DNA of 64,000 bases from an uncultured Rikenellaceae bacterium (GCA_964633195.1 CAZWFL010000003.1:1650-65649); one strand, 5' to 3'. Shown: positions 4,006 to 61,044, counted from the first letter of the stretch. The notes: generated by a model from the sequence alone, not told the origin. Numbers and translations: made by a program.

Positions 4006-4092
4006 TAACTTAAAGCTGACCAGTGAAATATTTGGAAAACAATACTGAAGGAAAACTAATTACATAACAGATAATAATTAGTTTAAACCGGG

Positions 4093-4995: not shown

Positions 4996-5005
4996 AACTG
5001 ATAAA

Positions 5006-6766: not shown

Positions 6767-6960
6767 CCAGCCGTAATCCTTTGTGAGCTTATTCTTAATG
6801 CTCTTACATCTTAATTTGGCTTGTAATAATTGAGCCATTATTCTTATATTTAACTTTCAAAATTACCAATACCTTATGAACGAAAATTGTCTCCACCATG
6901 AGAAAGTATCAACTAACAGGAAACAAGCTGATTTGATCCGTTTAACCTAAAAAATTTGTT

Positions 6961-9318: not shown

Positions 9319-9355
9319 GCGATAGAAGATAGGCGATAGAAGATAGGCGACAGGA
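9314..9355 (+). repeat. Heptanucleotide tandem array, 6 units (GATAGGC/GATAGAA alternating)
   Basis: GATAGGC GATAGAA GATAGGC GATAGAA GATAGGC GACAGGA. The first unit contains the TAG stop of the upstream gene. Confidence 0.9.
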
Positions 9356-9480
9356 TATAAACTTTATACTGATGAAACCTTCATGTTACAGAAGCACAAA
9401 AGAGAATGAGAATAATTTTCACCTATGAAGGTTCCATGCGAACCACTTAATTTTCAATAATATACTTATATTATTTTCGT

Positions 9481-26604: not shown

Positions 26605-27957
26605 TTAATTCATTTCCCTTATCATCAGATCTATCCCCTTTCTGATGATCGATTGTATCTCTATTTTCGACGGACAAATAAACTCGCAGAGTGCAAAATC
26701 CTCCTCTGCAACCTCGTAAATACCAAGATTTTCCATTCGTTCAATATCCTCCACAAGTATTGCTTTAAGCAGGTGCATGGGATAGATATCCATAGGCAGG
26801 ACCTTTTCATAGTGGCCGGTAATGACAAATGCCCTTTCGCCGCCGTGATAGTTGGTGTCAAATCTGTACTCTTTCCTTGGAAACAGAGCCGAAGCAAAAG
26901 TCTTTGTGAAGCTGAATTTCCTGAAACCAGGGGAAGCCCATCCGAAAAATTCGTGATAGTTCCCCTCAGGAATGACGGTGACCTGTGAATCATAATAGCC
27001 CAGATAACCGTCCGGTTCTATCCTTGAGCCGGTAAGAACGTTTCCGCTTATATATCTGAGGTCGCCGTTCTTCATATTCCCATTAAGCATAGGGGCAACA
27101 GAGCCCCCGGAAAGCATCCTGTAATACTGCGGATTAAGTACCTCCGATCCTGTAAGTGCCACAATCCTTTCCGGCCTGTAAACCCCCTCCTCAAAAAGTC
27201 TGCCTATGGCGTAAACGTCCTGAAAGTTGACACACCACACCTTCTCTCCCTTGTTTACAGGATCGATGTGATGAATATGTACCCCGACATTCCCTGCCGG
27301 ATGAGGTCCTGAGAAGTATGATACCTCAACACCCCGGAGGCCATTAAGAATCTCAGGGGGCTGTTCCTTTCCGTTAAGGACCAGATTCACCCTCCCTTCA
27401 GTAAGTGTTGCGATCGCTGCGATTCCGGTCCTGAAAAACGAACCATTCGAATTGTAAGAAATAAAATTATAATCAGGTGCCAGGGGTGACGTGTCAAAAC
27501 CCGAGATAAAGACCGATTTGGGTGTCTCATCAGGATTTGCCACTATATGATAGGGCCTCTGCCTTATGGCGGGCCATAACCCTGATTTTAAAAGATGCTC
27601 CCTTACTGTTTCACGATTAAGATTCTCTGTGCTGATCTTCTCAAACTCCGCAAAATCATTCCCTTTCTTTTCCACCACGATCTCCAACAGCTTCCTCCGG
27701 TCGCCTCTCACCACCTCTCTGACAACTCCGCTTACCGGGGATGTAAACTGAATCACCGTATTCATCTTATTGTAAAACAGAGAGGATCCGGCACTTACCC
27801 TGTCTCCCGGTTTTACACATATCTTCGGTATCAGTCCGGGGAAATCCACCGGTTTGACTCCATAAAAAGCAGGATCAATATCGCCGGCAAAAATTTTCTC
27901 CGGCTTACCTGATATCTTTAAATCCAGCCCTTTTTTCAGGGTAATTGATACGGCCAT
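26605..27957 (-). CDS. nqrA: Na+-NQR subunit A
   Basis: 450-aa soluble subunit with N-terminus ITLKKGLDLKISG. It is the first gene of the operon. Confidence 0.92.
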   Translation of the reverse strand: MAVSITLKKGLDLKISGKPEKIFAGDIDPAFYGVKPVDFPGLIPKICVKPGDRVSAGSSLFYNKMNTVIQFTSPVSGVVREVVRGDRRKLLEIVVEKKGNDFAEFEKISTENLNRETVREHLLKSGLWPAIRQRPYHIVANPDETPKSVFISGFDTSPLAPDYNFISYNSNGSFFRTGIAAIATLTEGRVNLVLNGKEQPPEILNGLRGVEVSYFSGPHPAGNVGVHIHHIDPVNKGEKVWCVNFQDVYAIGRLFEEGVYRPERIVALTGSEVLNPQYYRMLSGGSVAPMLNGNMKNGDLRYISGNVLTGSRIEPDGYLGYYDSQVTVIPEGNYHEFFGWASPGFRKFSFTKTFASALFPRKEYRFDTNYHGGERAFVITGHYEKVLPMDIYPMHLLKAILVEDIERMENLGIYEVAEEDFALCEFICPSKIEIQSIIRKGIDLMIREMN

Positions 27958-28029: not shown

Positions 28030-28085
28030 AAAAACCATTACAACATTTTAAGAAAAGTACCTGCCATGATTGTACTTTTTTGCAT

Positions 28086-28093
28086 TATTTTTG
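28086..28093 (+). promoter_or_regulatory. Bacteroidota -7 promoter box for the T9SS plug-like gene
   Basis: Exact TATTTTTG, 27 nt upstream of ATG 28120. It lies inside the longer ORF call from 28066, which argues for the 28120 start. Confidence 0.4.
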
Positions 28094-28119
28094 TCAACAA
28101 TTTATTAAAATATGATTTA

Positions 28120-29400
28120 ATGCAGGTTTTCCTTCTGTTTTTACTCTCTGCCCTCTCCCGGATGTTACCCGTAAATGAGTATGATCAGTCATATTCCGAC
28201 AGGGTTTACAGCGAAAAGATCAAAAGTGTCAGGCTCTTCAGGGAGGGATGGAATCTGTCATACCCGGTAATGAAACTCAAAAGCAATGATAAACTTGTTC
28301 TTCGTTTTGACCTGCTGGGTGATCATCCTGAAACATATTACTATACATTCATTCACTGTGATAAGGACTGGAACCCTTCTGATATTTTTGTAAACGATTA
28401 TCTTGAGGGATTTCCCGAAAACCAGATTGAAGAATTCAGGCCATCGTTCAATACTACTGTAAATTACATTCATTATTCGTTGATATTTCCCAACGAGAGG
28501 GCAGAACTGAAGCTTTCAGGGAACTATGTCCTCATCGTTTATCCGGCTCATAATCAGGACCATCCTGTTCTTACAAGAAGATTCATTATCTCTGAGGATG
28601 CAGCGGGAATCAATGTAAACCTCAGAAGGCCACAAATGACTGCAGACAATAACAGGGGACAGCAGGCTGATTTCACTGTAAGCTTCCAGGGGATCTCAAT
28701 TAACGACCCTCTCAGGAATATTTACACTTCTGTCCTTCAGAACGGAAGATGGGACCGTTTAAAAACAAATCTCAAAGCCGATTTTGTTGGGAATAATGAA
28801 CTAAGATACAGCTCATTATCAGACAAAACAATTTTCCCCGGAGGGAACGAATTCAGGTATTTCGATATAAGGAGCATCAGGTATAAATCTGAATTCATCA
28901 GCAGGATCGATTACAGATTCTCCAACTATCACATTATGCTTCAGCCTTCGGAGAACAGGGAGGCCAGGCCCTACTTTTATCACCAGGACTTTAACGGCAA
29001 ATATTATGTTGCAGTGCAGGAGGGACAGAACCATGAGACGGATGCCGATTATGTATGGATTTATTTCTCTCTCCCTTTCAGATATCCGTTAACCGGAGGA
29101 AAGGTATACGTGTCGGGTGCTTTTAACGGCTGGAACAATGACGCGGTAAACCGGATGAGCTATAACTATGAAAATGAAGCATACGAATGCAGCATACTGC
29201 TCAAGCAAGGCTGGTATAATTTTGAATATGAATATCTGAAAGACAACTCAGATGAGGGCACCTCTGAGATGTTTGAAGGGAGTCACTACGAAACGGAGAA
29301 TGATTACCTGATCATTGTATATTACCGCAATCCCCGCGAACGGTACGACCGCGTGATCGGGTCGATAGTAGCAAATACTCTTAACCGCATATCCGGTTAG
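28120..29400 (+). CDS. Type IX secretion system plug protein family (DUF5103-like)
   Basis: Signal-like MQVFLLFLLSALS. The family-typical stretch IKSVRLFREGWNLSYPVMKLKSNDKLVLRFDLLGDHPETYYYTFIHCDKDWNPSDIFVNDYLEGF...NTTVNYIHYSLIFPNERAELKLSGNYVLIVY was recognised from memory, not searched. Confidence 0.55.
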   Translation: MQVFLLFLLSALSRMLPVNEYDQSYSDRVYSEKIKSVRLFREGWNLSYPVMKLKSNDKLVLRFDLLGDHPETYYYTFIHCDKDWNPSDIFVNDYLEGFPENQIEEFRPSFNTTVNYIHYSLIFPNERAELKLSGNYVLIVYPAHNQDHPVLTRRFIISEDAAGINVNLRRPQMTADNNRGQQADFTVSFQGISINDPLRNIYTSVLQNGRWDRLKTNLKADFVGNNELRYSSLSDKTIFPGGNEFRYFDIRSIRYKSEFISRIDYRFSNYHIMLQPSENREARPYFYHQDFNGKYYVAVQEGQNHETDADYVWIYFSLPFRYPLTGGKVYVSGAFNGWNNDAVNRMSYNYENEAYECSILLKQGWYNFEYEYLKDNSDEGTSEMFEGSHYETENDYLIIVYYRNPRERYDRVIGSIVANTLNRISG

Positions 29401-35250: not shown

Positions 35251-37404
35251 CTACTGATAATTCTTAACCACATCTATCACCTCGGGAAGATCCATACCAA
35301 TCTTTTTAAGGAATTCTATTTTTGGAACACCATTGCTATTCCACCCCCTGCGCATGTAAACAGCATCAACCAGTTGATTATACTGGTCTTCTCTGTATTT
35401 TCTCAGTATACTCATTTTTTCCCCGGTATTTTTCCCTTCAGGGTCAATTCCCAGTATCTCTTTCAGCTGTTTATCATATCTTTCCTCACGCGATTCGTAT
35501 TCCTCTATTGTAACCGGTCCGGCAGCCCTGTATGGCTGCATGTCGTAAAGACGTGTGCCAAAGCCCCTTCTGAGATTAAAGACACGCTGGAAATTATAGA
35601 CCCTTTCAGAATCTTCGACAAGCCGGCGCTTGTTAAAATCCCTGCCGGTCACCGCTTTGTAGATAGTAACGTAATTATCGACATGTTCGGGCACTTTTGC
35701 CGGTTCGTCAGTCTCAGCATTATTTTCCGGTTCCACATCATTCCATGGCAGTTTACACAGGCCCACCAGGCCGAACCAGGTTCTGAACATCGGGAAATAA
35801 TGGAGGGCTTCTGCTTTATTTTCAAATGTTGGTATCTGATTATTAACCATATCCATAAAGATAAGCCATGCCTCATCGTGCTGTGGACCCTTATTTGTAA
35901 GGGCATAACCTCCCTGCTGCGCGAGCGATTCCTTTGACATATACTGTGAATATTCAAGTCTTTTGTTCACCATGGCTATATCATTCAGAAACCCGGCATC
36001 TCCCCATCCGTTCTTAATAAAAAGTTCCTTCATGGCGTAGACGCCCAGTCCGGCTGTTTTTCCGAATCCTTCTCCCCTGGCAGTCTGGTGCAGAAGTTCA
36101 AGAGCGGCATCTGAATTTCCGAATTTAAGGTCAAGACCACCTGTTTTTTCCATATTGAGGATGCCATTCTGGTAACACTCCATAATGAAGGCTGTGGTTG
36201 TACCCCAGGTAATGGTACAGATGCCGTATGTATCGCAATAGAAGTTTACTTCAATAATATACCCCGGATCAAAAATAGCGCAGTTGGCACCAAGTCCGGC
36301 GGCATTTTCATATTCCGGACCATCAACGATCACTTTATGCCCTTGATAGGGGCCGGTCCGGATAATAAAATCATCAACCCCCTTGCTGCACGACATGTTA
36401 CATCCAATCCAGCAACCATCCGGAATATTCTGGGTGAAAAAGCTTTTCCATACCGAGGAATCAATCTTATAAGCATCTGGATGGTTACCGTATTTAAAGT
36501 TCATAACGGGCAGCAGGTCGTGGTCGTTCATTATTTCCATCAGGTGAGCTGTCCCGACCTGGCGCATCTGACACTGCTTGTCATCAAGTTCGCGGATCTC
36601 CCTGTTAAATCTCTTCCCACGCTCCCTGATCGCTTCCAGGTCCACAACATTGTTAAGGTTCCCTTTCACTCCCGGTATTTTACAGACCAGCGCTCTTATC
36701 TTCTTGTTACGGAACACCGTGCCTATACCTCCTCTTCCTGCCTGCTTCAGTCTTACCTTTTTTCTTTTCGGATCGTAGAAACTGAAATTGAGCATCCCGA
36801 AGAGAGTATGTTCAGCAGCTGAGCCAGATGAGACAACTCCGATGTTTTTCTTCTCACTCTCGTCATCGGCAAAAATGTCTGTCAGGTATTCAGCAAGCAG
36901 ATGGCTGTCGCGCACTCCGTCGGGCATTTCATACACCTCCACTTTATGATTGATCCCGTCAATGAACACCATCACATCCCTGTCGGACTTCCCCTGGATC
37001 TCAAGGGCATCAAAACCCGCGAACTTAAGGAAGGGTCCGAAAAACCCGCCTACATTACTGTCCATAACGGAATCCGTCTCAGGTGAAATACTTACAACGA
37101 GAGACTTCCCGGTTCCCGAATATTGTGTGATCCCGCCGATCGGGCCTGACGATATGATTATTTCATTTTCAGGATCATCCCACTTTGTTTCAGGCTTTGT
37201 CGCATCCCATAGAAGTCTCAGCCCATACCCTTTTCCGCCGATGAACTTCTCTTTCATCAGAGCCGGTACATCCTTTTCCTTTATATCCGCAGTGCCTACA
37301 TTAATATAAAGAATCTTATCGGTGTAACCTCTGCTCAGGGGGGTCCATACATATTCCCACCGCTTTATCAGTTCATACTGATCCCTTTTAAGAGTAGTAT
37401 CCAT
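35251..37404 (-). CDS. Aldehyde:ferredoxin oxidoreductase family tungsto/molybdopterin enzyme, long (717-aa) form
   Basis: AOR N-domain (GGKGYGLRLLWD), DGPEYENAAGLGANC, cysteine cluster GCWIGCNMSC, and a helical C-terminal domain. Confidence 0.85.
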   Translation of the reverse strand: MDTTLKRDQYELIKRWEYVWTPLSRGYTDKILYINVGTADIKEKDVPALMKEKFIGGKGYGLRLLWDATKPETKWDDPENEIIISSGPIGGITQYSGTGKSLVVSISPETDSVMDSNVGGFFGPFLKFAGFDALEIQGKSDRDVMVFIDGINHKVEVYEMPDGVRDSHLLAEYLTDIFADDESEKKNIGVVSSGSAAEHTLFGMLNFSFYDPKRKKVRLKQAGRGGIGTVFRNKKIRALVCKIPGVKGNLNNVVDLEAIRERGKRFNREIRELDDKQCQMRQVGTAHLMEIMNDHDLLPVMNFKYGNHPDAYKIDSSVWKSFFTQNIPDGCWIGCNMSCSKGVDDFIIRTGPYQGHKVIVDGPEYENAAGLGANCAIFDPGYIIEVNFYCDTYGICTITWGTTTAFIMECYQNGILNMEKTGGLDLKFGNSDAALELLHQTARGEGFGKTAGLGVYAMKELFIKNGWGDAGFLNDIAMVNKRLEYSQYMSKESLAQQGGYALTNKGPQHDEAWLIFMDMVNNQIPTFENKAEALHYFPMFRTWFGLVGLCKLPWNDVEPENNAETDEPAKVPEHVDNYVTIYKAVTGRDFNKRRLVEDSERVYNFQRVFNLRRGFGTRLYDMQPYRAAGPVTIEEYESREERYDKQLKEILGIDPEGKNTGEKMSILRKYREDQYNQLVDAVYMRRGWNSNGVPKIEFLKKIGMDLPEVIDVVKNYQ

Positions 37405-50747: not shown

Positions 50748-51632
50748 ATGAAAGCATATGTGTTTCCGGGCCAGGGAGCCCAGTTTCCCGGTATGGCGAA
50801 GGATCTTTATGATAATAATTCTCTTGCAAGAGATATGTTTGAGCAGGCCAACGGGTTGCTCGGATTCGGGATAACTGAAATAATGTTCTCAGGTACAGAT
50901 GAAGAGCTGAAACAGACGAAAGTGACCCAGCCGGCCATCTTTCTTCATTCGGTAATACTGGCAGCTGTGCTTGGAGAGAATTTCAGGCCTGATATGGTTG
51001 CAGGACATTCGCTGGGAGAATTCTCAGCACTTGTTGCCTCAGGGGCTCTTTCCTTCAGAGACGGACTTATGCTTGTAGCGAGACGGGCTGAAGCCATGCA
51101 GAAGGCATGTGAGGCAGGACCTTCCACAATGGCGGCCATAATAGGTATCGATGACAAAATTGTGGAGGAGGTCTGTTCAGTTATAGATGAGATTGTTGTG
51201 CCTGCCAACTATAACAGTCCGGGGCAGATAGTGATATCGGGGTCATTTGAGGGAATAGACAAAGCTGTTGAGCTCCTTAAGGCAAAAGGTGCCAAAAGGG
51301 CTCTCAGGCTTCAGGTAAGCGGAGCTTTCCACTCACCTCTGATGGAGCCTGCCCGCGCAGAACTCGAAGAGGCAATCAGATCGGCACCCTTTGGAAGCCC
51401 CGTCTGTCCGGTCTATCAGAATGTCAGTGCACTGCCATCAACCGACCCGCAGACCATTAAGTCGAGTCTTGTTGCCCAGCTGACCTCGCCGGTTAAATGG
51501 ACAGACACAATAAGGAATATGATAGCTGATGGTGCTGATAAATTCATTGAGACAGGCCCCGGCTCCGTTCTGCAGGGACTTGTGAAAAAGATCAGCTGCG
51601 ACGTAACGACGGGGAGTGCCCTGGTTTCATAA
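50748..51632 (+). CDS. fabD: Malonyl-CoA:ACP transacylase
   Basis: FPGQGAQ, GHSLGEFSAL, VSGAFHSPLM. Confidence 0.93.
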   Translation: MKAYVFPGQGAQFPGMAKDLYDNNSLARDMFEQANGLLGFGITEIMFSGTDEELKQTKVTQPAIFLHSVILAAVLGENFRPDMVAGHSLGEFSALVASGALSFRDGLMLVARRAEAMQKACEAGPSTMAAIIGIDDKIVEEVCSVIDEIVVPANYNSPGQIVISGSFEGIDKAVELLKAKGAKRALRLQVSGAFHSPLMEPARAELEEAIRSAPFGSPVCPVYQNVSALPSTDPQTIKSSLVAQLTSPVKWTDTIRNMIADGADKFIETGPGSVLQGLVKKISCDVTTGSALVS

Positions 51633-54588
51633 CAACTCCCTTGTGTTTTCTTCCGTCTATCAGTATCTCGAGGGGCTCTTCAAAATGCAGATGCCTGAGA
51701 TATCTGTCCTCGGAAACAACCTTAAGACCATTCAAAAAATCAACATCATAGTACCCTTCACCGATAAAGGGATTTATTGTAAAGTATCCTACCCTGAATG
51801 AGGTGAGATTCTGAAAAAAATGGGTCCCCTGACTGGGGTCTATCCTGTAGTTCTTCAGCCCGGATTCTATTATAAGTCTCGATGCTGAAATCTGCGGCCA
51901 TTTGACCGGTATCCCGAGCCACGGATCCGAGGAGCCCCATCTGCCCGGACCTATAAGAATATATCCTTTGCCATTCTTAACAAACTGACTGTTAATCTTT
52001 TCAATTTCAGAGGCAATTTCCTTGTTGCGTGCAGGATTGAAAGACTCAGGTTTAATGTAAATCAGATCCTTTATCTCCTTCAGGACCCCGTTCCCCAGGG
52101 CCGATTCAGAATAGATTATCGTCTGTTCAGGCTTTACATTGTCGAGGTTGATATAGTACGATTCATCTGTCTGAACAATAGGCCTTACCTGGAGGAAATA
52201 AAAGATTTTCGGTGTTCCTGCCGGGGTCTCGAGGTTAACGGCAAATTCAATCTCGACAGGGTTGTTCATCTCTTTCTGACACAGCTCCAGGATCGCTGAC
52301 AGTATGTCGGATAGGGGAAAGAGCTTGTGCTGAAGTACATTGGAAAACGTGATCACTCTCTGGCCAGAGTGGCTTATCCCGTCTCTAAGGATATTGTTAT
52401 TGTAGTCGTAAGTTGAAGCAATAAATTTCATGGCACCATCGTTGTTGGCATCATTGATATCGATCTTTCTGATATTCACGCCATCGTCGGTGGAGGGAAC
52501 AAAACTTTCCACATTCATATCGAGAGCCCTGAACTCCTTCTGTGTATCTCTCAGTGCAGCCTCGGGAGAAGAGAGCTGAAGTATCTTTCTTGCATGTTTC
52601 GGAGAGAACCTGAGAGAGAGCCCTCCCTCAACTATCAGTTTTCCAAGACCGAAAGCTATGTTTGCTATGCCGTCTTCTGCCTTCTCCGAACCAATGGGAT
52701 AATAGTTGAGTGATCTGGCCACTCCGGAGAAGGTAGGATAATAGATATCACCATGTCTGCTGCCACAAACCTCCTGTAATATAATACCCATCTTTTCTTC
52801 GTCAATTACATTGGCTGTCGCAGTCATATATGCCTTGCTGCCGCGGTAGTAAACCGAGGCATACACCTCCTTTATGGCATCGGAGATGAGGGTAACCATC
52901 ATCTTATTGTCGGATACCCTCGGGATCATATATGTCGAATAGATACCGGCAAAAGGCTGGTAGCGGGAGTCTTCAAGCTTACTGGAAGATCTGACCGCAA
53001 TTGGATGGTTTCTCGAAACCGAGAGGAAGGTATAGAAATCCTGGTAAACCCTGCCCGGAAGTTCAGCACTTATAAACCTGTTCAGGATCTCCTCGTCGGG
53101 CAGGTCAGAAAGCGCTACGGCATAAAGGTTATTATGATCCATGAACTCATCGAAGATATCCGTGCCCAGAACGACCGTTCTGGGCACCGTTATCAAAACA
53201 TCAGGGTACTTATTAAACAGCTTGTTGTCTTTTATCAGCCTGTTTATAAATGCAAGTCCCCGGGCCTTCCCGCCTATTGACCCCTCGCCGATTCGCGAAA
53301 AGACCTGATACTCATCATAACTCGTCTTGTCGAACTTGGCTATCACTCCCCTGCCCTTGCCAAGCCTGAAGCTGGATATCGCAACGTAAAGAAAACGCCT
53401 CAGCTCATCCATCGTCTCGAAATCCTCTTTCCTGAGGTATTTGAAAAGCTGGGCGACAGGAAAAAGAGCCCTTGCATTGAGCCATTTGGAGAAGTGGTTT
53501 CGCGTGGCGTGGTATTCAAGTGTTTTATCAGGAATGGTCAGCAGCTTCTGCTGAAGGCTCTGCAGATCAGTGGCAATGGCTATTGGCTCCATCGTGTCGG
53601 GGTTCTTAAAGACGAAGGGCCCGAAAGCCAGATTCTGGATGATGAAATTCCTCAGCTCAAGAGAGAGCGACTTCGAGTATTTATTTATGAAACCCGCTCC
53701 AAGCTCCTCTGCCATCTTTTTGTGTGCCGTACTGGACGACTGCAGGAGAAAAGGCACATTATCATCATCTTCAAGCACAACCTTGCATAACTCTATACCG
53801 GCATTCTCATCAACAAGATTATTCCTTTTATAGCTTATGTCTGAAATTACCCCAAGAACATTATACTTGTATTTATCATATAGGGCAAGTGCATCATTGA
53901 AATTAGTGGCCAGCAGGATTTTGGGCCTCCCCCTCATCTTAAGCATCCGCTGATGCTCATTGAGAGCCTCCCTCTGAAAATCAAGAGACTGCTGAAGTAC
54001 TATCCTGTAAAGATTCGGAAGGTATGATGAGATATATCTTATTGAATTTTCCACAAGAATGATTGCCTGAACGCCTATTCTTTCTATATCGTGTTCGGCA
54101 TTCATCCTGTCCTCAAGCAGCTTGATGATGGCCAGGATAAGCGATGCATCTCCGAGCCAGCAGAACACATAGTCAATGGCGCTCAGGTCCTCCCCTTCAA
54201 GCCGTAACGACACTTCCCGCGAAAAATATGTGAGCACTACGATGGGAATCTTCCTGTAACTGGCCTTGATCCTTTTGGCAAGAGCGAATACATCTGTTCC
54301 CCTGAGGCTCAGCATTGAGATCACAAGATCGATATTACCCTCCTCAAGAATCCCGAATGCATCTTCGGCATTGTCAGTCTGTATGAAGGAGGGAGGATAT
54401 TTCAGATTAAGAGATACATATTCGTTGAAAATCTGCTCATCAATCCGCCCATCCTCTTCAAGCATGTAACTATCATAATTACTGCATATTACGAGCACCC
54501 GGTGTATCCTCTTCTGCATGAGAAGATCGAATGAAGTGTCGGTAAAATCATATTTCTGCAGATCCAGTATTCCGTTAATAATTGTCAT
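51592..54588 (-). CDS. Pseudo-receiver + receiver + PPDK_N (PEP/pyruvate-binding ATP-grasp) + conserved C-terminal module; paralog B (998 aa)
   Basis: REC1 is degenerate (IDLVISM92). REC2 has an Asp (VLGVISD250). ATP-grasp motifs GGKARGL, AVRSSSKLEDS..PFAGIYSTY, MGIILQEV, GLGKLIVEG, EIEFAV...FLQVRP. C-terminal LIGPGRWGSSDPWLGIPVKWPQIS...SQGTHFFQN. Confidence 0.8.
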   Translation of the reverse strand: MTIINGILDLQKYDFTDTSFDLLMQKRIHRVLVICSNYDSYMLEEDGRIDEQIFNEYVSLNLKYPPSFIQTDNAEDAFGILEEGNIDLVISMLSLRGTDVFALAKRIKASYRKIPIVVLTYFSREVSLRLEGEDLSAIDYVFCWLGDASLILAIIKLLEDRMNAEHDIERIGVQAIILVENSIRYISSYLPNLYRIVLQQSLDFQREALNEHQRMLKMRGRPKILLATNFNDALALYDKYKYNVLGVISDISYKRNNLVDENAGIELCKVVLEDDDNVPFLLQSSSTAHKKMAEELGAGFINKYSKSLSLELRNFIIQNLAFGPFVFKNPDTMEPIAIATDLQSLQQKLLTIPDKTLEYHATRNHFSKWLNARALFPVAQLFKYLRKEDFETMDELRRFLYVAISSFRLGKGRGVIAKFDKTSYDEYQVFSRIGEGSIGGKARGLAFINRLIKDNKLFNKYPDVLITVPRTVVLGTDIFDEFMDHNNLYAVALSDLPDEEILNRFISAELPGRVYQDFYTFLSVSRNHPIAVRSSSKLEDSRYQPFAGIYSTYMIPRVSDNKMMVTLISDAIKEVYASVYYRGSKAYMTATANVIDEEKMGIILQEVCGSRHGDIYYPTFSGVARSLNYYPIGSEKAEDGIANIAFGLGKLIVEGGLSLRFSPKHARKILQLSSPEAALRDTQKEFRALDMNVESFVPSTDDGVNIRKIDINDANNDGAMKFIASTYDYNNNILRDGISHSGQRVITFSNVLQHKLFPLSDILSAILELCQKEMNNPVEIEFAVNLETPAGTPKIFYFLQVRPIVQTDESYYINLDNVKPEQTIIYSESALGNGVLKEIKDLIYIKPESFNPARNKEIASEIEKINSQFVKNGKGYILIGPGRWGSSDPWLGIPVKWPQISASRLIIESGLKNYRIDPSQGTHFFQNLTSFRVGYFTINPFIGEGYYDVDFLNGLKVVSEDRYLRHLHFEEPLEILIDGRKHKGVVMKPGHSPSLRRS

Positions 54589-57500
54589 CCGTCAGCTTTT
54601 TGTTGATTCGTTGATATTACTGCTATACCTTTCCTTCCGTCCATCTTTATAAGCAGAGGATTTTCAAATTGCACACGGTGGAAGTATTTTCTCTTTTCCA
54701 GTACCGGTGTATTTCTCATCTTCTCCCACTCTATTCTGCATGAGGGGGAATCCTGGTTTACGGAAAAGTATCCGACATTCATCGAAGTAACATTATGGAA
54801 GAAGTGGGATCCGAGAGATGCGTCTATATGAAAATCGGGAAGGCTCACTTCCACAATCACTTTTGCATTTGAGATCTGCGGCCACACAACCGGTATTCCG
54901 ATGTACTTATCTTTCGTCCCCCATCGGCCCGGGCCTATAAGAACATATTTGCGGTTCTCCCTGACCATTTCCTCGTTTATCTTTTCTATCTCTGCCGCCA
55001 TGACTTCTGTCTGAAGCCTGTTGAATTTATCAGGGTGCAGGTAAATAATATCTCTTATGTCATCAATGATCCCGTTACCCATACTCCTGTCTGAGAGGAG
55101 CAACAGGTCACTTTCGGTAATTGTTACGGGGTCGATAGAATAGCCTGCACCCATTCCCACAAGAGGTTTGATCTGGAGCAGATAGAATGAGGCATTCCCT
55201 TTCTCATCCCTGTTCAGATCGACGGCAAACTCAATCTCCACGGTGGTACCGCAGGCTTCCGTAACCACCTCAAGAACAGTCTTGATAGTTGACGCCAATG
55301 GTATGTAATTATATTTGAGGATATCCGCGAAGTTAACTATCCTGGGTCCCGGGTAATCGAGGCCCGGTACAATAGTATCGTTATCTGTATGGAATACTGA
55401 TGCGCAATGTCTGAGGGTACCATGCTCTTCGGCAACGCTTATATCGAGGGTGACAAGGCCTGCATTCTCCCCTTCCAGAAGGTTCAGGTTTCCCTTTGCC
55501 ATATCTACTGCATAGAACTTCACCTGAGAGTTTTTATACAGATCATCTTTAGTAATCATTTCCAGGTCGGGATAAGCCGGGGAAAACCTGTATGCCTTTT
55601 CGCCCTCCATAACGTACTGGCCCAGTCCGAGTGCCATTACCGCAAATCCGTCGTGAGGTTTCATGTGTGCAACCGGGTAGAAGTTAAACGATTGAGCAGT
55701 ACCGCTTATATGCGGGTAAAAAGCATTGTCAAATCTGTTACCTGCCACTTCCTGGATTACCACGGCCATCTTCTCCTGTTCAATTGTGTATGATATGGCG
55801 TCAAAATAGGCTCGTGCACTCTTTGAGTATATCGAGGCAAAAACGAGCTTAATGGCATCCGTAACCTGTTTGAGCCTTATTTCGGTCTCAGGATGATTAT
55901 TAGGGAGAAGATATGTATCAAATATCCCGGAGAATGGTTGAGTGAGTGAATCTTCAAAGAGGCTCGATGATCTTACAGCCAGCGGTTTGTTTATCAGCCT
56001 GAGAAAAATCCTCAGATGCTTCTCCAGAGTATAGCTCAGGCTGCCCTTTATAAAAAGCTTCCGGAGCTGGTCATGATCTTTCTCCTCTCCGATCTTTTCC
56101 CAGAGATGATTGCGCTCCATAAAAAGGTCAAACTCATCGGTGCCTATGATAGCCGTTACAGGAGTCTTTATATTGATACCCGGCAAAAGACGGCCCAGTT
56201 CAAAGCTGTAAATAAGGGTGTTGATAAAAGAGAGCCCCCTCCCCTTTCCTCCCAGCGATCCGGATGATAGGCTCACGACATTCGTCTCATCAATAACCGC
56301 CGACTCTTCAAAATTTATGACCCTCCCCTTGTTCATCTCCCTGCGTCTCCGGCGTATAATATCAATAAGATACTCCCTGAGCTCCTTAAGGTCTTTGAAA
56401 TCGCTAACCTTCACGGGATTAATCATTTTAGCGATCTTTGCCTCTCCGCGAGCCATAAGCCAGAGTGAGAAATGGTTTTTCATTGCATGATATGCAAGCG
56501 AATCTTCAGGAACCGACTCAAGGTAATTCTCAAACTCCTTCATCGATTTAGCCACCGCAATCTCCCTGCCCTGATTATCTCTGTACACAAAATGTCCAAA
56601 ACCCAGATAATAGTTGATGAACGTTTTGATATCACGTAGCAGACTCTCAGAATTCTTGTTAATAAAATTTGATTTCAGGTCAAAGGCATATTGTGCATTC
56701 TCCGGATCTGACGACTGGAGCACCGTCGGAAGGTTAGGCAGGACTTCCCTGACATGCCTCAGGAGGTTATATCCGGCCAAATCGTCAAGAAGACCATTCC
56801 GGGGAAATCGCATGTCGGATATTACGCAAAGAAGGTTCTCCCTGTACCTGTTCATTGCATTAAGTGCGTCCTCGTATGTTGAAGCAAGAATTATTTTGGG
56901 CCTGGCCCTCAGCTTTAATACCTTGTAGAGTTCGTCCGTTGAAACATCTTCAATAAGATTTTTTGTCTGCTCAAGTACAAGGGTATACAGCATGGGAAGG
57001 TACCTCGAATAGAAATCGGCTGAATCCTCAACAATCAGTATTACCCCTGTCAGTCCTTTCCTCGTATCATTATCAACATTAACTCTGTCCTCAAGAAGGT
57101 TCACCATCGCAAAGAAGACTTTAGACTCACCTGTCCACACGAAATAATTATCGAACGGGACACCTGCTGATTTCTGTTTTTGTACGTATCCGAGGTCACC
57201 GGGATTGTAAAGGAGCAGGTATGTTGGTATATATGGATATTTATGTTTTATTTTTCTGCATAGTCTCATAGGACCGGCTTTATCGACTCCGATCATGATG
57301 ATAATCATATCGTAATGCCTCGATTTCAGCCTGTTAAATGCCTCATCCTCGCCTGAGACACCTGTTACGCGAGGCAATGTGGAGAGGCTCAGATGATAAT
57401 ATTCACCCAGAATATGGTCGGAAAATCTTCCTTCCCCTTCTATTGAATATGCGTCGTAGAGGTTAGCTACAAGCAGAATCTCCTTTACTTTAAAGGGCTG

Positions 57501-58043
57501 AAGGTCGTGAAAAACATCCCTGTCGGCATTATGCCGGTCGAGAAATCTCTGCAGGAGCTTTTTACTCGATATATTTTTAAGATCCTCCTCTTGAGCGACC
57601 GGCTTAACCTTATGAATCAGTTCCCTTGCCTTGTAGCTGTTTATATAACCTGTTATAAGGCTGGCGATATTCTGAATAAGATCTCTTTCCTCCTTCAGAA
57701 AAGGGCCCTCGTCTTCAACGCTAAACTCGCGGGTATATAAGATTTCGATTATGCCTTTCTCGTCGTCTATTGTATTGAACTCCTGCATCATCCGCCACTC
57801 TGTCTCCTGAAAATCTACCGATTCAAACCTGTTGCCTCCATAACTAATCCGTGCGCAGGTATAATCGGGATACTGCCATGCAGCCGGCAGCAGCAGTACT
57901 ATCTGCTGCAGAGTCTCCTCAACAGGCTTCCCTTCCTTAAGAATATAGGTGGTCTGGTTGATACAGCCCAGTTCCTTAAGCCTCTCCTGCTGTTCGTGGA
58001 GCAGACGCTTATATTCAATATTATTATATGCCGGATCCTCCAT
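54585..58043 (-). CDS. Sensor domain + pseudo-receiver + receiver + PPDK_N ATP-grasp + conserved C-terminal module; paralog A (1152 aa)
   Basis: N-terminal ~135-aa sensor-like module (LKELGCINQ...LPAAWQYPD...EGPFLKEERDLIQNIA). REC1 is degenerate (YDMIIIM250). REC2 Asp at LLCVISD410MRFP. GGKGRGL, AVRSSSLFEDS..PFSGIFDTY, MAVVIQEV, EIEFAV...LLQIKP. C-terminal LIGPGRWGTKDKYIGIPVVWPQIS...SLGSHFFHN. ATGA overlap with paralog B. Confidence 0.8.
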   Translation of the reverse strand: MEDPAYNNIEYKRLLHEQQERLKELGCINQTTYILKEGKPVEETLQQIVLLLPAAWQYPDYTCARISYGGNRFESVDFQETEWRMMQEFNTIDDEKGIIEILYTREFSVEDEGPFLKEERDLIQNIASLITGYINSYKARELIHKVKPVAQEEDLKNISSKKLLQRFLDRHNADRDVFHDLQPFKVKEILLVANLYDAYSIEGEGRFSDHILGEYYHLSLSTLPRVTGVSGEDEAFNRLKSRHYDMIIIMIGVDKAGPMRLCRKIKHKYPYIPTYLLLYNPGDLGYVQKQKSAGVPFDNYFVWTGESKVFFAMVNLLEDRVNVDNDTRKGLTGVILIVEDSADFYSRYLPMLYTLVLEQTKNLIEDVSTDELYKVLKLRARPKIILASTYEDALNAMNRYRENLLCVISDMRFPRNGLLDDLAGYNLLRHVREVLPNLPTVLQSSDPENAQYAFDLKSNFINKNSESLLRDIKTFINYYLGFGHFVYRDNQGREIAVAKSMKEFENYLESVPEDSLAYHAMKNHFSLWLMARGEAKIAKMINPVKVSDFKDLKELREYLIDIIRRRRREMNKGRVINFEESAVIDETNVVSLSSGSLGGKGRGLSFINTLIYSFELGRLLPGINIKTPVTAIIGTDEFDLFMERNHLWEKIGEEKDHDQLRKLFIKGSLSYTLEKHLRIFLRLINKPLAVRSSSLFEDSLTQPFSGIFDTYLLPNNHPETEIRLKQVTDAIKLVFASIYSKSARAYFDAISYTIEQEKMAVVIQEVAGNRFDNAFYPHISGTAQSFNFYPVAHMKPHDGFAVMALGLGQYVMEGEKAYRFSPAYPDLEMITKDDLYKNSQVKFYAVDMAKGNLNLLEGENAGLVTLDISVAEEHGTLRHCASVFHTDNDTIVPGLDYPGPRIVNFADILKYNYIPLASTIKTVLEVVTEACGTTVEIEFAVDLNRDEKGNASFYLLQIKPLVGMGAGYSIDPVTITESDLLLLSDRSMGNGIIDDIRDIIYLHPDKFNRLQTEVMAAEIEKINEEMVRENRKYVLIGPGRWGTKDKYIGIPVVWPQISNAKVIVEVSLPDFHIDASLGSHFFHNVTSMNVGYFSVNQDSPSCRIEWEKMRNTPVLEKRKYFHRVQFENPLLIKMDGRKGIAVISTNQQKADG

Positions 58044-58119: not shown

Positions 58120-59139
58120 CTATTCAACCACCCATGTCGATCCGCTTTTAAGCAGATCGTCCATGCATTTCACGGGTGATTTTTCGCGGATTATGCTGAT
58201 TTGTTCCTCAACGGCACTCTCATAGGTGTCTCCGCTGACAGCCCTGATAATCCCCAGTGCAACCGGATATTCGGGATACCTCATATTTGCTAACATATAC
58301 TGTATTCCCGGATTGGATTCGGCAGCGTCATGCACAAGCAGGTCCTTTTCAGTTATACCGTTTCCGAGTGTAACGACCCTAAGCTTAAGACCCTCAAGAA
58401 CGAGGCCCTTGTCGCTGTTTTTCCCAAACAGCATGGGTTCACCATGTTTCAGAATTATCGTTCTGTCTTCTCTCACTTCCTTATCGGTAACCACATCGTG
58501 TATCCCGTCATTGAAAATAACACAGTTCTGCAGCACCTCAATAACTGATGTCCCTTTGTGTCTGGCTGCATCTATGCAGATCTGTGTTGAAAGGGATACA
58601 TTTGAATCGACTGTCCGCGCGAAATATTTACCTTTTGCGCCTATAACAAGTTCGCCGACCGAGAAAGGCTCCTCAACAGTACCGAAAGGTGATGTTTTTG
58701 TTACAAGACCCCTTTCAGATGTGGGAGAATACTGGCCTTTTGTCAGGCCATAAATTTCATTATTAAAAAGGAGGATGTTGATGTCGATATTACGCCTGAC
58801 CACATGAATGAAGTGGTTGCCGCCTATAGCGAGTGCATCTCCGTCGCCCGTTATCTGCCATACCGATAGTTGTGTGTTGGCTGTCTTAATGCCTGAGGCA
58901 ATTGCCGATGCACGACCGTGAATTCCATGGAATCCGTATGTGTTCATATAATAAGGGAATCTCGAAGAACAGCCGATCCCTGAAACAAATGCATAATTCT
59001 CGCGCGGTATACCGAGCTCCGATAAAGCCCTCTGTACGGCATTCAGTACTGCATGATCACCGCAGCCCGGGCACCATCTTACCTCCTGGTCGCTCTTAAA
59101 ATCCTTCGGAGTATACTCAAACGTACGAAGTTCATCCAT
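58120..59139 (-). CDS. korB: 2-oxoglutarate/2-oxoacid:ferredoxin oxidoreductase subunit beta (ThDP-binding)
   Basis: RWCPGCGDH, GIGCSSR, GDGDALAIGGNHF. 339 aa. It overlaps korA by 8 nt. Confidence 0.88.
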   Translation of the reverse strand: MDELRTFEYTPKDFKSDQEVRWCPGCGDHAVLNAVQRALSELGIPRENYAFVSGIGCSSRFPYYMNTYGFHGIHGRASAIASGIKTANTQLSVWQITGDGDALAIGGNHFIHVVRRNIDINILLFNNEIYGLTKGQYSPTSERGLVTKTSPFGTVEEPFSVGELVIGAKGKYFARTVDSNVSLSTQICIDAARHKGTSVIEVLQNCVIFNDGIHDVVTDKEVREDRTIILKHGEPMLFGKNSDKGLVLEGLKLRVVTLGNGITEKDLLVHDAAESNPGIQYMLANMRYPEYPVALGIIRAVSGDTYESAVEEQISIIREKSPVKCMDDLLKSGSTWVVE

Positions 59140-60985
59140 TTAATTTGTCCTCCAGTATTTTAATGCATTGTTCCTTTATCTCCTGCGAAGTAAAGGGCAG
59201 GCCCTGTACCTTATTGATCTGCAGATAAGTGAACTCCTGGTACTTCATTCTCAGGTAGGCTGCCATCTGTCCCATGTTGAGCTCACAGACAACTATTTTC
59301 CTGAACTTGCTGAATACTTCCCTTACATTTTTGGGAAGAGGATGGATGTAGTTAAAGTTAACCAGTCCCACCTTGTGTCCTTCCGCCTGAAGCTCCCGCA
59401 CAGCAGTCATTATATATCCGTAAGAGCCACCCCAGCCGACTACAAGCAGATCGCCCGATTTGTCACCTGCAGCATTAAGGTCGGGGACCTTCTCTGCCAC
59501 CCTGTTAACCTTCTCCGCCCTCAGTTTTACCATCAGTTCGTGGTTATCGGGGATATAAGAGACTGTGCCCTTTATGGTTTTCTCAAGTCCGCCTATCCTG
59601 TGTTCAAAACCGGCAGTTCCTGGTGTTGCCCAGAATCTCGATAACCTCTCTTCATCGCGTTTATAAGGCATGAAGGGAATATCATCAGGTGACGGTCTGG
59701 GAGGTTTTATCTCCGGCAGGTCCTTCATCTCAGGTATTTTCCACGGTTCAGTGCCATTAGCCAGATAGCCGTCGGTCAGCAATATTACCGGGGTCATATG
59801 TTCTATAGCTATCCTTGCTGCCTGAAAGGCATAATCAAAACAGTCAGCAGGAGTGCTTGCTGCAAGGACAACAACCGGGCATTCTCCGTTACGGCCGTAG
59901 AGTGCCTGCAAAAGGTCGGCCTGTTCGGTTTTTGTAGGCAGGCCAGTGGAAGGGCCTCCTCTCTGAACATCCACAATAACAACCGGAAGTTCAGCCATCA
60001 CGGCAAGTCCAATTGCCTCGGTCTTAAGCGCCAGTCCGGGTCCCGATGTAGTTGTTACAGCCAGGTAACCTGCGAAGCTGGCACCAAGGGCGGTGCATAT
60101 ACCGGCAATCTCGTCCTCGGCCTGGAAACTCTTGACACCAAGATCCTTTCTCAGGGCCAGTTCTTCAAGTATACCTGTTGCCGGCGTGATCGGGTATGAT
60201 CCAACAAATAGCTTCAGTCCGGCTTTCTCGGCAGCTGCCATAAGTCCCCATGCCGTGGCGGCATTACCGCATATGTTACGGTATATACCGGGGGCTATCC
60301 TTGCAGGACTTACCTTATAAACAGGTGTAAGGGCTTCGATAGTCTCAGCATAGTAATAGCCCGCCCTGAGTGCAATCTTGTTCGCCTGAGCTATCTGCGG
60401 CTTCTTGCTGAACTTCTTTTCAAAATATTTCTCGGTATAATCAAGCTTCCGGTCAAAAAGCCAGTAAACCATCCCAAGGGCAAACATATTCTTTGTCCGC
60501 AGAACTGATTTGGGATCGAGACCGAAATCCTTAAGCGCCTCTTTCACCATAGAAGAGACAGGTGCTGCTATTATTGTATATCCGTCAAGATTCTCTTCCC
60601 TGACCGGGTCCTTTTCATAACCTGCCTTCCTGATGTTCTTCTCCGTGAAGTTATCCTGATCATAAATAATGGTTCCCCCCTTCCTGGTCCATTTCACATT
60701 TGCTTTTATTGCAGCCGGGTTCATTGCTACAAGAACATCTGCCAGATCCCCCGGGGTAAAAACTTCCGATTTACCCAGATGTACCTGGAATCCTGAAACA
60801 CCTCCGACGGTTCCCTGGGGAGCTCTTATTTCCGCCGGATAATCCGGAAATGTAGACAGGTCGTTACCATACAGGGCAGCCGTATCGGAGAAAAGGGTAC
60901 CGGTCAACTGCATACCATCACCCGAATCACCCGAGAACCGGATCACCACCTCTTCCTTCTCAATAATTTTTGATTTCTTACCCAT
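59132..60985 (-). CDS. korA: 2-oxoglutarate/2-oxoacid:ferredoxin oxidoreductase subunit alpha
   Basis: From Met16: MGKKSKIIEKEEVVIRFSGDSGDGMQLTG. GSYPITPAT and TTTSGPGLALK. A promoter box at 61045-61052 supports this start. Confidence 0.88.
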   Translation of the reverse strand: MGKKSKIIEKEEVVIRFSGDSGDGMQLTGTLFSDTAALYGNDLSTFPDYPAEIRAPQGTVGGVSGFQVHLGKSEVFTPGDLADVLVAMNPAAIKANVKWTRKGGTIIYDQDNFTEKNIRKAGYEKDPVREENLDGYTIIAAPVSSMVKEALKDFGLDPKSVLRTKNMFALGMVYWLFDRKLDYTEKYFEKKFSKKPQIAQANKIALRAGYYYAETIEALTPVYKVSPARIAPGIYRNICGNAATAWGLMAAAEKAGLKLFVGSYPITPATGILEELALRKDLGVKSFQAEDEIAGICTALGASFAGYLAVTTTSGPGLALKTEAIGLAVMAELPVVIVDVQRGGPSTGLPTKTEQADLLQALYGRNGECPVVVLAASTPADCFDYAFQAARIAIEHMTPVILLTDGYLANGTEPWKIPEMKDLPEIKPPRPSPDDIPFMPYKRDEERLSRFWATPGTAGFEHRIGGLEKTIKGTVSYIPDNHELMVKLRAEKVNRVAEKVPDLNAAGDKSGDLLVVGWGGSYGYIMTAVRELQAEGHKVGLVNFNYIHPLPKNVREVFSKFRKIVVCELNMGQMAAYLRMKYQEFTYLQINKVQGLPFTSQEIKEQCIKILEDKLNG

Positions 60986-61044
60986 TATCCCGGTTGCATT
61001 TTCTCCGATGCATGAAAGGCACCAGATCAATTACTTATGTCGTA

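Follow-up and report, generated by a model that had tools for sequence, protein, structure and literature searches.

What does a PPDK_N-type ATP-grasp domain do when it is preceded by two receiver domains and followed by a domain that has no recognizable relative? This question is raised by two large neighboring genes, A and B, encoded on the minus strand of a 64,000-nt stretch of DNA (hereafter, the window). The source of both genes is an uncultured Bacteroidales bacterium. An earlier note had described the genes as a translationally coupled pair, paralogous along their whole common length, and this description was confirmed. The ORF list, translation, and Pfam placed gene A (1152 aa) at 54585..58043 and gene B (998 aa) at 51592..54588, both on the minus strand, and the translations matched the motifs that the note had quoted. 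The stop codon of A and the start codon of B overlap in the sequence as ATGA (54585..54588, minus strand), and the two proteins align over 981 residues with 35% identity and 58% similarity (E = 0). The domain order of A is an N-terminal extra domain, a pseudo-receiver, a receiver, a hairpin/helical linker, a PPDK_N ATP-grasp, and a novel C-terminal domain; B has the same architecture minus the N-terminal extra domain, and this anatomy is also the one given in the note. The full-length AlphaFold2 model of B (pLDDT 88, pTM 0.81) contained two (beta-alpha)5 domains. We tentatively regard the paralogs A and B as response regulators whose output is enzymatic, at a confidence somewhat below even that belongs to the dikinase explanation as a whole.

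Each protein contains a complete PPDK_N-type ATP-grasp, as the note had proposed, and both Pfam scores and residues support this assignment. Pfam PPDK_N (PF01326) matched A at residues 596-961 (E = 1.2e-34, 120.5 bits) and B at residues 437-809 (E = 3.2e-37, 129 bits); the Pfam gathering threshold is 27 bits. From Pfam and residue mapping, the domain covers aa 590-966 of A (55146..56276, minus strand; K600, R691, E936, E938, Q957, K959), and from Pfam and Foldseek it covers aa 430-809 of B (52162..53301, minus strand; GGK441, R533, E779, E781, Q800, R802). Two sets of sequences were compared, namely 51 diverse relatives and 129 A/B-type sequences derived from loci, the latter including A and B of the window and comprising 50 A-type sequences. 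GGK441, R533-SSS, E539-D540, Q605, E779, E781, and Q800 were all invariant in the 51 diverse relatives, and the same positions were fixed within the A-type and the B-type, except S536, which is Gly in three A-type sequences. By motif, E779/E781/Q800/R802 of B match D321/E323/Q335/R337 of PPDK (PPDK numbering checked), and the residues that mark nucleotide binding and catalysis in PPDK_N (K441, R533, E779, E781, Q800, and R802) were invariant or nearly so. The R337 equivalent is Lys959 in A, and this position is Lys in 50/50 A-type sequences and Arg in the B-type. Because the A-type has Lys where PPDK has R337, the catalytic equivalence of the two proteins may be in doubt, and A and B may be catalytically non-equivalent.

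When the B model was compared with known structures using Foldseek, it matched rifampin phosphotransferase (RPH; E = 3.5e-13), HpeI (5.6e-10), and PPDK (3.8e-7). RPH of Listeria monocytogenes (PDB 5hv1) was the best structural match to the ATP-grasp and also its best PDB sequence-profile match (6e-10). Like A and B, RPH is a multi-domain single chain; in RPH, the substrate is handled by a domain that follows the ATP-grasp. However, RPH has no receivers, and its rifampin-binding domain and C-terminal His swivel are both absent from A and B. PEP synthase and PPDK share the ATP-grasp family (PF01326) with A and B, and B keeps the motif equivalents of D321/E323/Q335/R337. In contrast to these enzymes, A and B are without PF00391 and PF02896 and add two receivers and a hairpin/helical domain N-terminally.

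The two receivers of each protein differ in their phospho-acceptor sites. The first (REC1) covers aa 30-171 of B (54076..54501, minus strand), where Response_reg matched above the cut-off (1.1e-8) and the model shows a (beta-alpha)5 domain. In A, its boundaries were transferred from B through the A/B alignment (aa 188-330; 57054..57482, minus strand), and the Response_reg match is weaker. An alignment with FleR placed Met92 of B at the position of the phospho-acceptor Asp, and the phospho-acceptor Asp after beta3 is missing from REC1 of both A (Met250) and B (Met92). In the 51 diverse relatives, the acceptor column contained Met in 29, Phe in 7, Thr in 6, Leu in 3, and other residues, with Asp in 0, and it was Met in 50/50 A-type sequences. 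REC1 is a receiver-fold domain without the Asp, in line with the degenerate first receiver with Met at the acceptor position that had been described.

The second receiver (REC2), in contrast, has an intact phospho-acceptor site. It covers aa 175-319 of B (53632..54066, minus strand; E180, N181, D250, S284, K303) and, by mapping from the B model, aa 334-479 of A (56607..57044, minus strand; E339, D340, D410, S444, K463). The single-sequence Pfam match to REC2 was weak (E = 0.026). In the AlphaFold2 model, residues 175-319 of B form a (beta-alpha)5 fold with five strands and helices alternating, with an elongated alpha1 and an additional helix at 183-219, and Foldseek with the B model supported REC2 through the tandem-receiver proteins PleD and 3luf and other receivers. 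E180, D250, S284, and K303 were conserved in 46-50 of the 51 diverse relatives, and the corresponding Glu/Asp/Ser/Lys positions were invariant in 129/129 loci-derived sequences. Asp250 (codon at 53839..53841, minus strand), the predicted phospho-acceptor, was found in 47/51 diverse relatives and in all 129 loci-derived sequences; its equivalent in A is Asp410 (codon at 56814-56816, minus strand). REC2 of A and B has the receiver fold and the acidic/Asp/Ser/Lys catalytic set, and the model and the conservation of this set agree with the earlier description of a second receiver with an intact Asp and an insertion after beta1. PleD-type regulators likewise have tandem phosphorylatable and Asp-less receivers before an enzymatic output, and PleD aligned with B over roughly 420-445 columns (Foldseek E about 4e-7). 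PleD takes up the phosphoryl group on its first receiver and uses the second as an adaptor. The receiver order is reversed in A and B, and the output is PPDK_N-type rather than GGDEF.

The region after the ATP-grasp sets these proteins apart from the classical dikinases. The C-terminal domain of B is a novel alpha/beta domain of about 180 aa (aa 810-987; 51628..52161, minus strand) predicted by AlphaFold2 with a pLDDT of 93.9 and a pTM of 0.91, and by alignment the domain covers aa 967-1143 of A (54615..55145, minus strand; GPGRWG, R1040, E1065, S1076, and H1080 in GSHFF). The corresponding residues of B are G880-x-G-R883-W-G885, E908, S919, and G921-T-H923-F-F. The GxGRWG and G(S/T)HFF motifs are almost universal in the family, at a fixed spacing of 41 aa. 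This domain came after PPDK_N in 9/9 proteins checked. Neither PEP-utilizers (PF00391) nor PEP-utilizers_C (PF02896) was detected in A or B by Pfam or NCBIfam, and both chains end about 190 aa past the ATP-grasp, without a TIM barrel. No Pfam family was found for the C-terminal domain when 40 family members were scanned at E ≤ 10. A Foldseek search of the domain against the PDB gave nothing significant (best E = 0.012, TM 0.25), with neither a dikinase nor Enzyme I among the 50 matches listed, and the fold search against BFVD gave no significant match. The hhalign probability of the C-terminal profile against six swivel-domain sequences (PDB-chain alignments) was 0.3%, and no swivel similarity was seen against Enzyme I alone. 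The HMM profile of the domain, searched against PDB sequences, gave only a chance longin match (E = 0.01). A 28-residue stretch ('sDpwLGIPVkWsqis..') aligned with the beginning of the RPH swivel at -2.9 bits, and this was treated as noise. The Pfam, HMM-PDB, hhalign, and Foldseek PDB and BFVD results rule out an ordinary swivel domain; the profile and structure searches suggested in the earlier note thus found no mobile-domain His fold, and its claim that a PEP-utilizer swivel and TIM barrel are missing holds.

Within this domain, one His stands out. H923 of B (codon at 51820..51822, minus strand) was invariant in 51/51 diverse relatives, where it is the sole family-wide invariant His, and it was present in 128/129 loci-derived sequences, the remaining one being gapped at the site; its equivalent in A is His1080 (codon at 54804-54806, minus strand). 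The earlier note had called G(S/T)HFF the only conserved element with a His. This is not so between A and B, which also have the linker motif YHA..NHFS.WL in common, but H923/H1080 is indeed the sole family-invariant His. In the AlphaFold2 model, H923 lies at the N-terminus of a predicted helix (H113-121 of the domain), and the catalytic His of swivel domains is likewise at a helix N-terminus. Further invariant polar residues of the domain are N866, R883, D888, E908, S919, N927, and Y935, and such a set would fit a full active site. Positions 802 (Arg/Lys) and 922 (Thr/Ser) are strictly paired, being K,S in the A-type and R,T in the B-type. Because R at 802 combines freely with S or T at 922 in the wider family, this covariation is a clade signature, and it was rejected as a sign of site contact.

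The side-by-side arrangement of the two genes is conserved in related genomes. The adjacent A-B arrangement is kept in 49 related loci, the gap between the A stop and the B start is -17 to +93 nt in 49/52 loci, and 8 related loci have the same ATGA overlap as the window. Genomic matches number at least 592, and related metagenome-assembled genomes (MAGs) are labeled Lentimicrobiaceae, Prolixibacteraceae, and Marinilabiliaceae. Among more distant relatives, B occurs alone or about 6 kb from A. Conservation of the tandem and of the kor neighborhood, which the earlier note had proposed as a check, holds in the closer clade and fails beyond it, where the B-type is alone in many relatives. In other lineages, two PPDK_N units are fused in one chain; an apparent natural A-B fusion in locus L001 was rejected, a stop codon being present. 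PPDK_N plus C-terminal units without a recognizable receiver form the first units of P0133, P0147, and P0169, and perhaps a further such unit in P0244, and P0180 is a variant without REC2 entirely. Receiver-less proteins of ~700 aa were rejected as evidence, as they are mostly truncated gene calls starting inside REC2. B-type identity is 83-94% among the closest relatives and 58-85% across species representatives of uncultured Bacteroidales MAGs, which indicates strong purifying selection on the whole B-type chain. Members are also found beyond the phylum: Terriglobales provide an example, and Heimdallarchaeota are listed for the family in the literature. When the C-terminal profile was used to survey taxa, all matches were short fragments without annotation.

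Directly upstream of A, 76 nt away, lies the gene for a 2-oxoacid:acceptor oxidoreductase beta subunit (58120-59139, minus strand), preceded by that for the alpha subunit (59132-61030, minus strand; Pfam and NCBIfam TIGR03710, 652 bits). This korAB pair is upstream in 37 related loci. No terminator-like site was found on the minus strand in the korB-A interval, in a sigma-70 promoter/terminator scan that is uninformative for this phylum. In 7 other loci, B is followed immediately by gdhA, and in 3 loci genes for NuoE/NuoF/GltD-Fdh separate A from B. These recurrent neighbors (2-oxoacid:ferredoxin oxidoreductase, NADP-glutamate dehydrogenase, and a NuoE/NuoF/GltD-Fdh-like complex) weakly suggest a target in 2-oxoacid, glutamate, or redox metabolism. 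The kor synteny may reflect conserved gene order over a housekeeping block (skp, murI, fabD, folE) rather than function. No histidine kinase was found adjoining the pair in the window or recurring in related loci. The window encodes a single kinase (4985-6766), which lies 45 kb away and has an OmpR-type regulator of its own as partner; the annotation of the neighbors and of the window bears out the absence of a kinase partner beside the pair. A six-frame regular-expression search for a GG.TSH-type swivel His motif gave 0 matches in the window and 0 in 80 related loci, and the genes beside the pair received other annotations.

The best reading of these results, which we put a little short of an even chance, is that A and B are response regulators whose dikinase-like output loads the invariant His. 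An unlinked histidine kinase would phosphorylate D410 of A and D250 of B, and the tandem receivers would then shift their oligomeric or conformational state in a PleD-like manner, probably in an A-B heteromer where both genes exist. This change in the receivers would turn the ATP-grasp on, and its dikinase half-reaction would put a phosphoryl group on His1080 or His923 of the C-terminal domain. That domain would stand in for two parts of a classical dikinase, the swivel domain and the substrate-binding domain, and the phosphoryl group would then move on to an acceptor. Invariance and modeled position, together with the analogy with dikinases, make His923 a candidate phospho-carrier; the C-terminal domain could equally be of a substrate-binding or other catalytic kind. 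The earlier note had speculated about a receiver-gated kinase whose substrate is a metabolite or protein, and we infer that this is still the best reading. A wider version would see here a new kind of phosphohistidine-carrier and catalytic domain in a third PPDK_N dikinase architecture (with no swivel and no TIM barrel), under two-component control as an A-B heteromer. In anaerobic Bacteroidales and other phyla, its target would be a metabolite or protein of the 2-oxoglutarate/glutamate/ferredoxin node; we find this version rather doubtful.

Alternatively, the C-terminal domain might be a substrate-binding or catalytic domain and not a phospho-carrier, with the ATP-grasp directly phosphorylating or ligating a bound substrate, or loading a phosphohistidine protein in trans. 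This explanation is unlikely in our view. To our knowledge, every characterized PPDK_N enzyme relays phosphate through a swivel His domain, and the invariance of H923 and the occurrence of the C-terminal domain after PPDK_N in all nine proteins checked also argue against a non-carrier role. However, the domain resembles no phosphohistidine domain and is rich in invariant polar residues besides the His. Precedents are the two-component dikinases HpeHI and phenylphosphate synthase: HpeI (PDB 9goj), the fifth-best structural match to the B model, is an ATP-grasp subunit without its own His domain that works with a separate His-domain subunit (PMC12167813). In these systems, the His swivel and substrate-binding parts are on the co-encoded partner, whereas no GG.TSH-type partner was found in the window or the 80 related loci, and A and B carry a fused, different, conserved domain.

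The absence of a histidine kinase beside the pair or recurring in related loci, together with the two neighboring copies, which overlap by ATGA in the window and in 8 loci, would also suit a self-contained phosphorelay. Here, the phosphoryl group would pass from the ATP-grasp to the C-terminal His and then, by chemically ordinary His-to-Asp transfer, to the REC2 Asp in cis or on the partner; the pair would take the place of a histidine kinase, with a protein-protein interaction as its real output. However, orphan response regulators are common, and the sole output part of these chains is an enzyme part. Moreover, because PPDK_N plus C-terminal units occur without a receiver, the receivers look regulatory and not like a substrate, and these units together with P0180, which is without REC2, imply that the catalytic core has a function independent of the receivers. 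The receiver-less units of P0133, P0147, and P0169 likewise weaken the proposal in the earlier note that the ATP-grasp replaces a histidine kinase, and the phosphorelay seems quite improbable. It is hardly credible that A and B lack catalytic activity and serve as scaffolds or pseudoenzymes, or that they are simply PEP synthase or PPDK under a wrong annotation, although the first receiver is degenerate and the database names include 'phosphoenolpyruvate synthase'. They cannot be PEP synthase or PPDK because the swivel domain and the PEP/pyruvate TIM barrel are both absent, and invariance of all ATP-grasp catalytic residues and strong purifying selection on the whole chain speak against pseudoenzymes.

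The combination of receiver and PPDK domains has been recorded previously. The census of Galperin et al. 2018 (PMC5847659) lists REC+PPDK, described as 'Bacteroides-like', and Maule et al. 2015 (PMC4395418) note an enrichment of receivers lacking the Asp among those with PPDK effector domains. The architecture is therefore already on record; the census entries themselves have the same domain combination as A and B and mention no function, C-terminal domain, second receiver, or paired genes. Literature searches on the pairing of PPDK_N with response regulators, on DUF5752, and on the 'pyruvate-binding domain' turned up no functional study of this family. The family keeps the ATP-grasp machinery but swaps the swivel domain for one without a recognizable relative, and this exchange therefore points to a new phosphate carrier or new chemistry. 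If the dikinase reading is true, a well-defined enzymatic output class would be added to response regulators, and A and B would provide a clear case of an Asp-less receiver serving as an adaptor beside a functional receiver. The scale is considerable, with the C-terminal domain in at least 1764 protein clusters (50% identity) and high B-type conservation, and the candidate residues D250/D410 and H923/H1080 open the hypothesis to direct test by labeling and mutagenesis.

Two further regions complete the chains. Between REC2 and the ATP-grasp is a beta-hairpin and helical linker, covering aa 485-571 of A (56331..56591, minus strand; YHAMKNHFSLWL motif) and, from the secondary structure of the model, aa 325-412 of B (53353..53616, minus strand; YHATRNHFSKWL motif). 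Pfam DUF5752 (PF19027) matched residues 498-572 of A (E = 2.4e-6; score 27.5 bits, gathering threshold 23) at profile positions 20-108 of 208 only, and the match in the B linker was below the cut-off (E = 0.027); the linker is weakly DUF5752-like. The A-specific N-terminal domain (aa 1 to about 165; 57549..58043, minus strand) is a possible sensor. It had zero Pfam matches at E ≤ 10 and zero PDB sequence matches, and homologue searches with it returned mostly short fragments. The domain is conserved in A-type genes, being kept at 27-74% identity among those of related loci, and in one case (P0394) its homologue is fused to a PAS domain.

Genes A and B, which encode paralogous giant proteins combining receivers with a PPDK_N ATP-grasp, are minus-strand ORFs at window positions 54585–58043 (A, 1,152 aa) and 51592–54588 (B, 998 aa), and the ATGA at 54585–54588 contains both the stop codon of A and the start codon of B. 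The two proteins shared 35% identity and 58% similarity over 981 aligned residues; residue 168 of A aligned to residue 10 of B, and A is therefore longer by approximately 165 N-terminal residues. The overlapping, paralogous pair proposed in the earlier note was thus borne out by the ORFs, the sequence, and the A–B alignment, and is real and well above chance; every motif quoted there was present in the translations of A and B, and the description as a whole was correct in almost every detail. Some long-read assemblies have the A-specific N-terminal domain as an ORF of its own, ~150 aa long (related locus L009, 6542–9998; P0301, P0304, and P0305, short proteins encoded on long contigs), which may be due to a frameshift error or to genuine splitting. 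The 3′ end of B overlaps the 3′ end of a convergent fabD-like gene (50748–51632, plus strand) by 41 nt (51592–51632).

Pfam searches identified a PPDK_N ATP-grasp domain in A (residues 596–961, E = 1.2e−34) and B (437–809, E = 3.2e−37), a Response_reg domain in B (69–142, E = 1.1e−8) with a weaker match in A (223–277), and a DUF5752 match in A (498–572; 27.5 bits, cut-off 23). NCBIfam models of PEP synthase, PigC/RedH, and rifampin phosphotransferase gave only partial, far sub-threshold matches, all within the ATP-grasp region, and neither protein has a swivel domain (the PEP-utiliser phosphohistidine domain of classical dikinases) or a TIM barrel. The full-length AlphaFold2 model of B, based on an alignment of 51 diverse relatives, was confident (pLDDT 88, pTM 0.81) and comprised two (βα)5 domains (30–171 and 175–319, the latter with an elongated α1 and an extra helix at 183–219), a β-hairpin with a helical bundle (325–412), the ATP-grasp (~430–803), and a C-terminal domain (823–987). 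When this model was compared with the PDB using Foldseek, it matched rifampin phosphotransferase (E = 3.5e−13), the stand-alone ATP-grasp subunit HpeI (E = 5.6e−10), pyruvate phosphate dikinase (PPDK; E = 3.8e−7), and the tandem-receiver regulators PleD (E about 4e−7) and 3luf (E about 6e−6). The longest near-identical stretch of A and B is the linker motif (E/A)YHA(T/M)(R/K)NHFS.WL (B 353–372, window 53473–53532; A 513–532), chosen as the most conserved pattern when related loci were located; linker H360 was kept in 40/51 relatives.

The region of ~180 aa after PPDK_N is, as a new finding here, a conserved, widespread, and unannotated domain that replaces the swivel domain and holds the only invariant His. 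A search with residues 810–998 of B against 1.84 billion cluster representatives returned 1,764 clusters at E ≤1e−3 and 970 at E ≤1e−10, and PPDK_N directly preceded this module in 9/9 proteins checked for architecture. The motifs GxGRWG and G[ST]HFF were near-universal, with a fixed spacing of 41 residues, and N866, G880, G882, R883, W884, G885, G892, E908, S919, G921, H923, F924, and Y935 (B numbering) were invariant in a 40-sequence alignment. H923, equivalent to His1080 of A, was the only His conserved in 51/51 full-length relatives, the next best being H966 (42/51). AlphaFold2 modelled the module as an α/β domain (pLDDT 93.9, pTM 0.91) in which a strand leads into the glycine-rich loop and the His lies at a helix N-terminus. 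In Foldseek searches, this fold had no significant counterpart in the PDB (best E 0.012, TM 0.25) or in BFVD, and neither a dikinase nor Enzyme I was among the 50 PDB matches listed. Furthermore, a family HMM gave nothing meaningful against PDB sequences, Pfam gave only single chance matches at E ≤10 for 40 module members (PEP-utilizers, 0/40), and profile–profile comparison with six swivel domains from PDB chains (Enzyme I, three PEP synthases, RPH, and PPDK) yielded a probability of 0.3%. The Pfam, Foldseek, and profile comparisons rejected the ordinary mobile PEP-utiliser domain, with its catalytic His, that the earlier note had named as a refutation, and the claim that no phosphohistidine domain is recognisable withstood all of the module comparisons able to refute it. 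Three metagenomic proteins (P0133, P0147, and P0169; 1,520–1,650 aa) carry two PPDK_N plus C-terminal units per chain, the second being a divergent subtype (GPGRWGSRGD ... SFGTHFFQD).

In the ATP-grasp, GGK441, R533-S-S-S, E539-D540, Q605, E779, E781, and Q800 were invariant in 51/51 relatives, and the same residues were fixed within both paralogue types (A-type and B-type), except S536, which is Gly in three A-type proteins. The B stretch E779-I-E781-F...F-L-Q800-V-R802 matched by motif the stretch D321-M-E323-F...F-L-Q335-T-R337 confirmed in the C. symbiosum PPDK sequence. Because these motif residues are intact, A and B look catalytically competent, judging from sequence. All B-type proteins had Arg at position 802 (window 52183–52185) and Thr before the invariant His (T922 in B; 79/79), whereas A-type proteins had Lys at the position equivalent to PPDK R337 (50/50; A K959, window 55167–55169) and Ser before the His in 49/49 sequences ungapped there (A S1079). 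In the wider family, position 802 was mostly Arg, freely paired with Ser or Thr, so that this pairing was rejected as a sign of site contact; Lys/Ser marks the A clade.

When B was aligned to FleR, Met92 fell where the first receiver (REC1) should have its phospho-acceptor. This column was Asp in 0/51 diverse family members (M in 29, F in 7, T in 6, L in 3, and others), which makes REC1 an Asp-less receiver. The catalytic residues of the second receiver (REC2) were retained in most of the 51 relatives (E180 in 50, D250 in 47, S284 in 45, and K303 in 46) and did not vary in 129/129 A-type and B-type sequences (127 from related loci plus A and B themselves), in agreement with the earlier description of a pseudo-receiver followed by an intact one. 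PleD has a similar tandem-receiver arrangement, but its adaptor and phosphorylatable domains are in the opposite order. The only kinase found in the window was a HisKA/HATPase_c histidine kinase (4985–6766, plus strand), 45 kb from the pair, which overlaps its own partner, a classical OmpR-type response regulator (4309–4995, plus strand).

A genome scan detected at least 592 relatives in species-representative genomes, and the best 80 of these loci (B identity 58–85%) were all from uncultured Bacteroidales or Bacteroidia of fens, lakes, sediments, and digesters; the family is also present beyond Bacteroidota, with a Terriglobales protein in one cluster. Among the best 80, an A-type gene lay directly upstream of a B-type gene in 49 of the 52 loci in which both were detected (gap −17 to +93 nt), and the identical ATGA overlap occurred in eight related loci. 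In L069, L076, and L079 (about 3700–10000), A and B shared a strand but were separated by ~6 kb containing NuoE-like, NuoF-like, and 1,230-aa GltD/formate-dehydrogenase-like genes, also on that strand, and an additional rubrerythrin gene in L076; this cluster looks like one operon. Meanwhile, B directly followed korB without A in three genomes (L021, L022, and L035), A was truncated in L049, and the more distant loci (B identity 58–61%) mostly had B alone. Conservation of the tandem pair, raised in the earlier note, holds only among the closer relatives; the duplication is clade-specific. Genes for a 2-oxoacid:acceptor oxidoreductase (TIGR03710, 652 bits) lay upstream in 37 of the best 80 loci, and the wider syntenic block is skp, murI, korAB, A, B, then convergent fabD and folE. 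An NADP-glutamate dehydrogenase gene directly followed B on the same strand in seven other loci, including L040, L045, L050, L060, L062, and L072, where the enzyme is 445 aa long and NADP-specific and there is no kor neighbourhood. The common theme of these neighbours (2-oxoacids, glutamate, ferredoxin, and NAD(P)H) is suggestive, not strong. In the sub-clade of L034, L036, L038, and L039, the gene immediately upstream of A encodes a tandem universal stress protein (Usp) and is divergently oriented on the opposite strand.

We found no functional study of the REC+PPDK family in the literature. The architecture is already catalogued by Galperin et al. (PMC5847659), and Maule et al. 2015 (PMC4395418) list PPDK as one of the effector domains with the strongest association with Asp-less receivers. 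The A/B pair is best filed as response regulators with an enzymatic output that are also members of the PPDK_N dikinase superfamily. We tentatively favor a mechanism in which a kinase whose gene is not linked to the pair would phosphorylate REC2, and the tandem receivers would then activate the enzyme, probably an A–B heteromer wherever both genes are present; the ATP-grasp would load His923/His1080, from which the phosphoryl group would pass to an acceptor.

It is rather unlikely, but worth weighing, that the C-terminal domain binds or converts a substrate instead of carrying phosphate, or that the carrier is supplied in trans. HpeHI shows that a PPDK_N subunit can act together with a separate partner that carries the His (PMC12167813); in contrast, neither the window nor any of the best 80 loci encodes a protein with the swivel motif. 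A self-contained His-to-Asp relay taking the place of a histidine kinase is improbable because receiver-less PPDK_N plus C-terminal units exist: no receiver was detectable in the first unit of P0133, P0147, or P0169. Least of all do we expect A and B to be pseudoenzymes or misannotated PEP synthases. The phosphohistidine route through His923/His1080 stays our preferred, if provisional, reading.

Elsewhere in the window, a 589-aa ORF (14989–16758, plus strand) matched no Pfam family at E ≤1e−5. Genes of anaerobe-type energy metabolism and the T9SS encode a fused E1 dehydrogenase/transketolase-like protein (803 aa; 18136–20547), NqrA (26605–27957), a T9SS plug protein (28066–29400), and an aldehyde:ferredoxin oxidoreductase (35251–37404).
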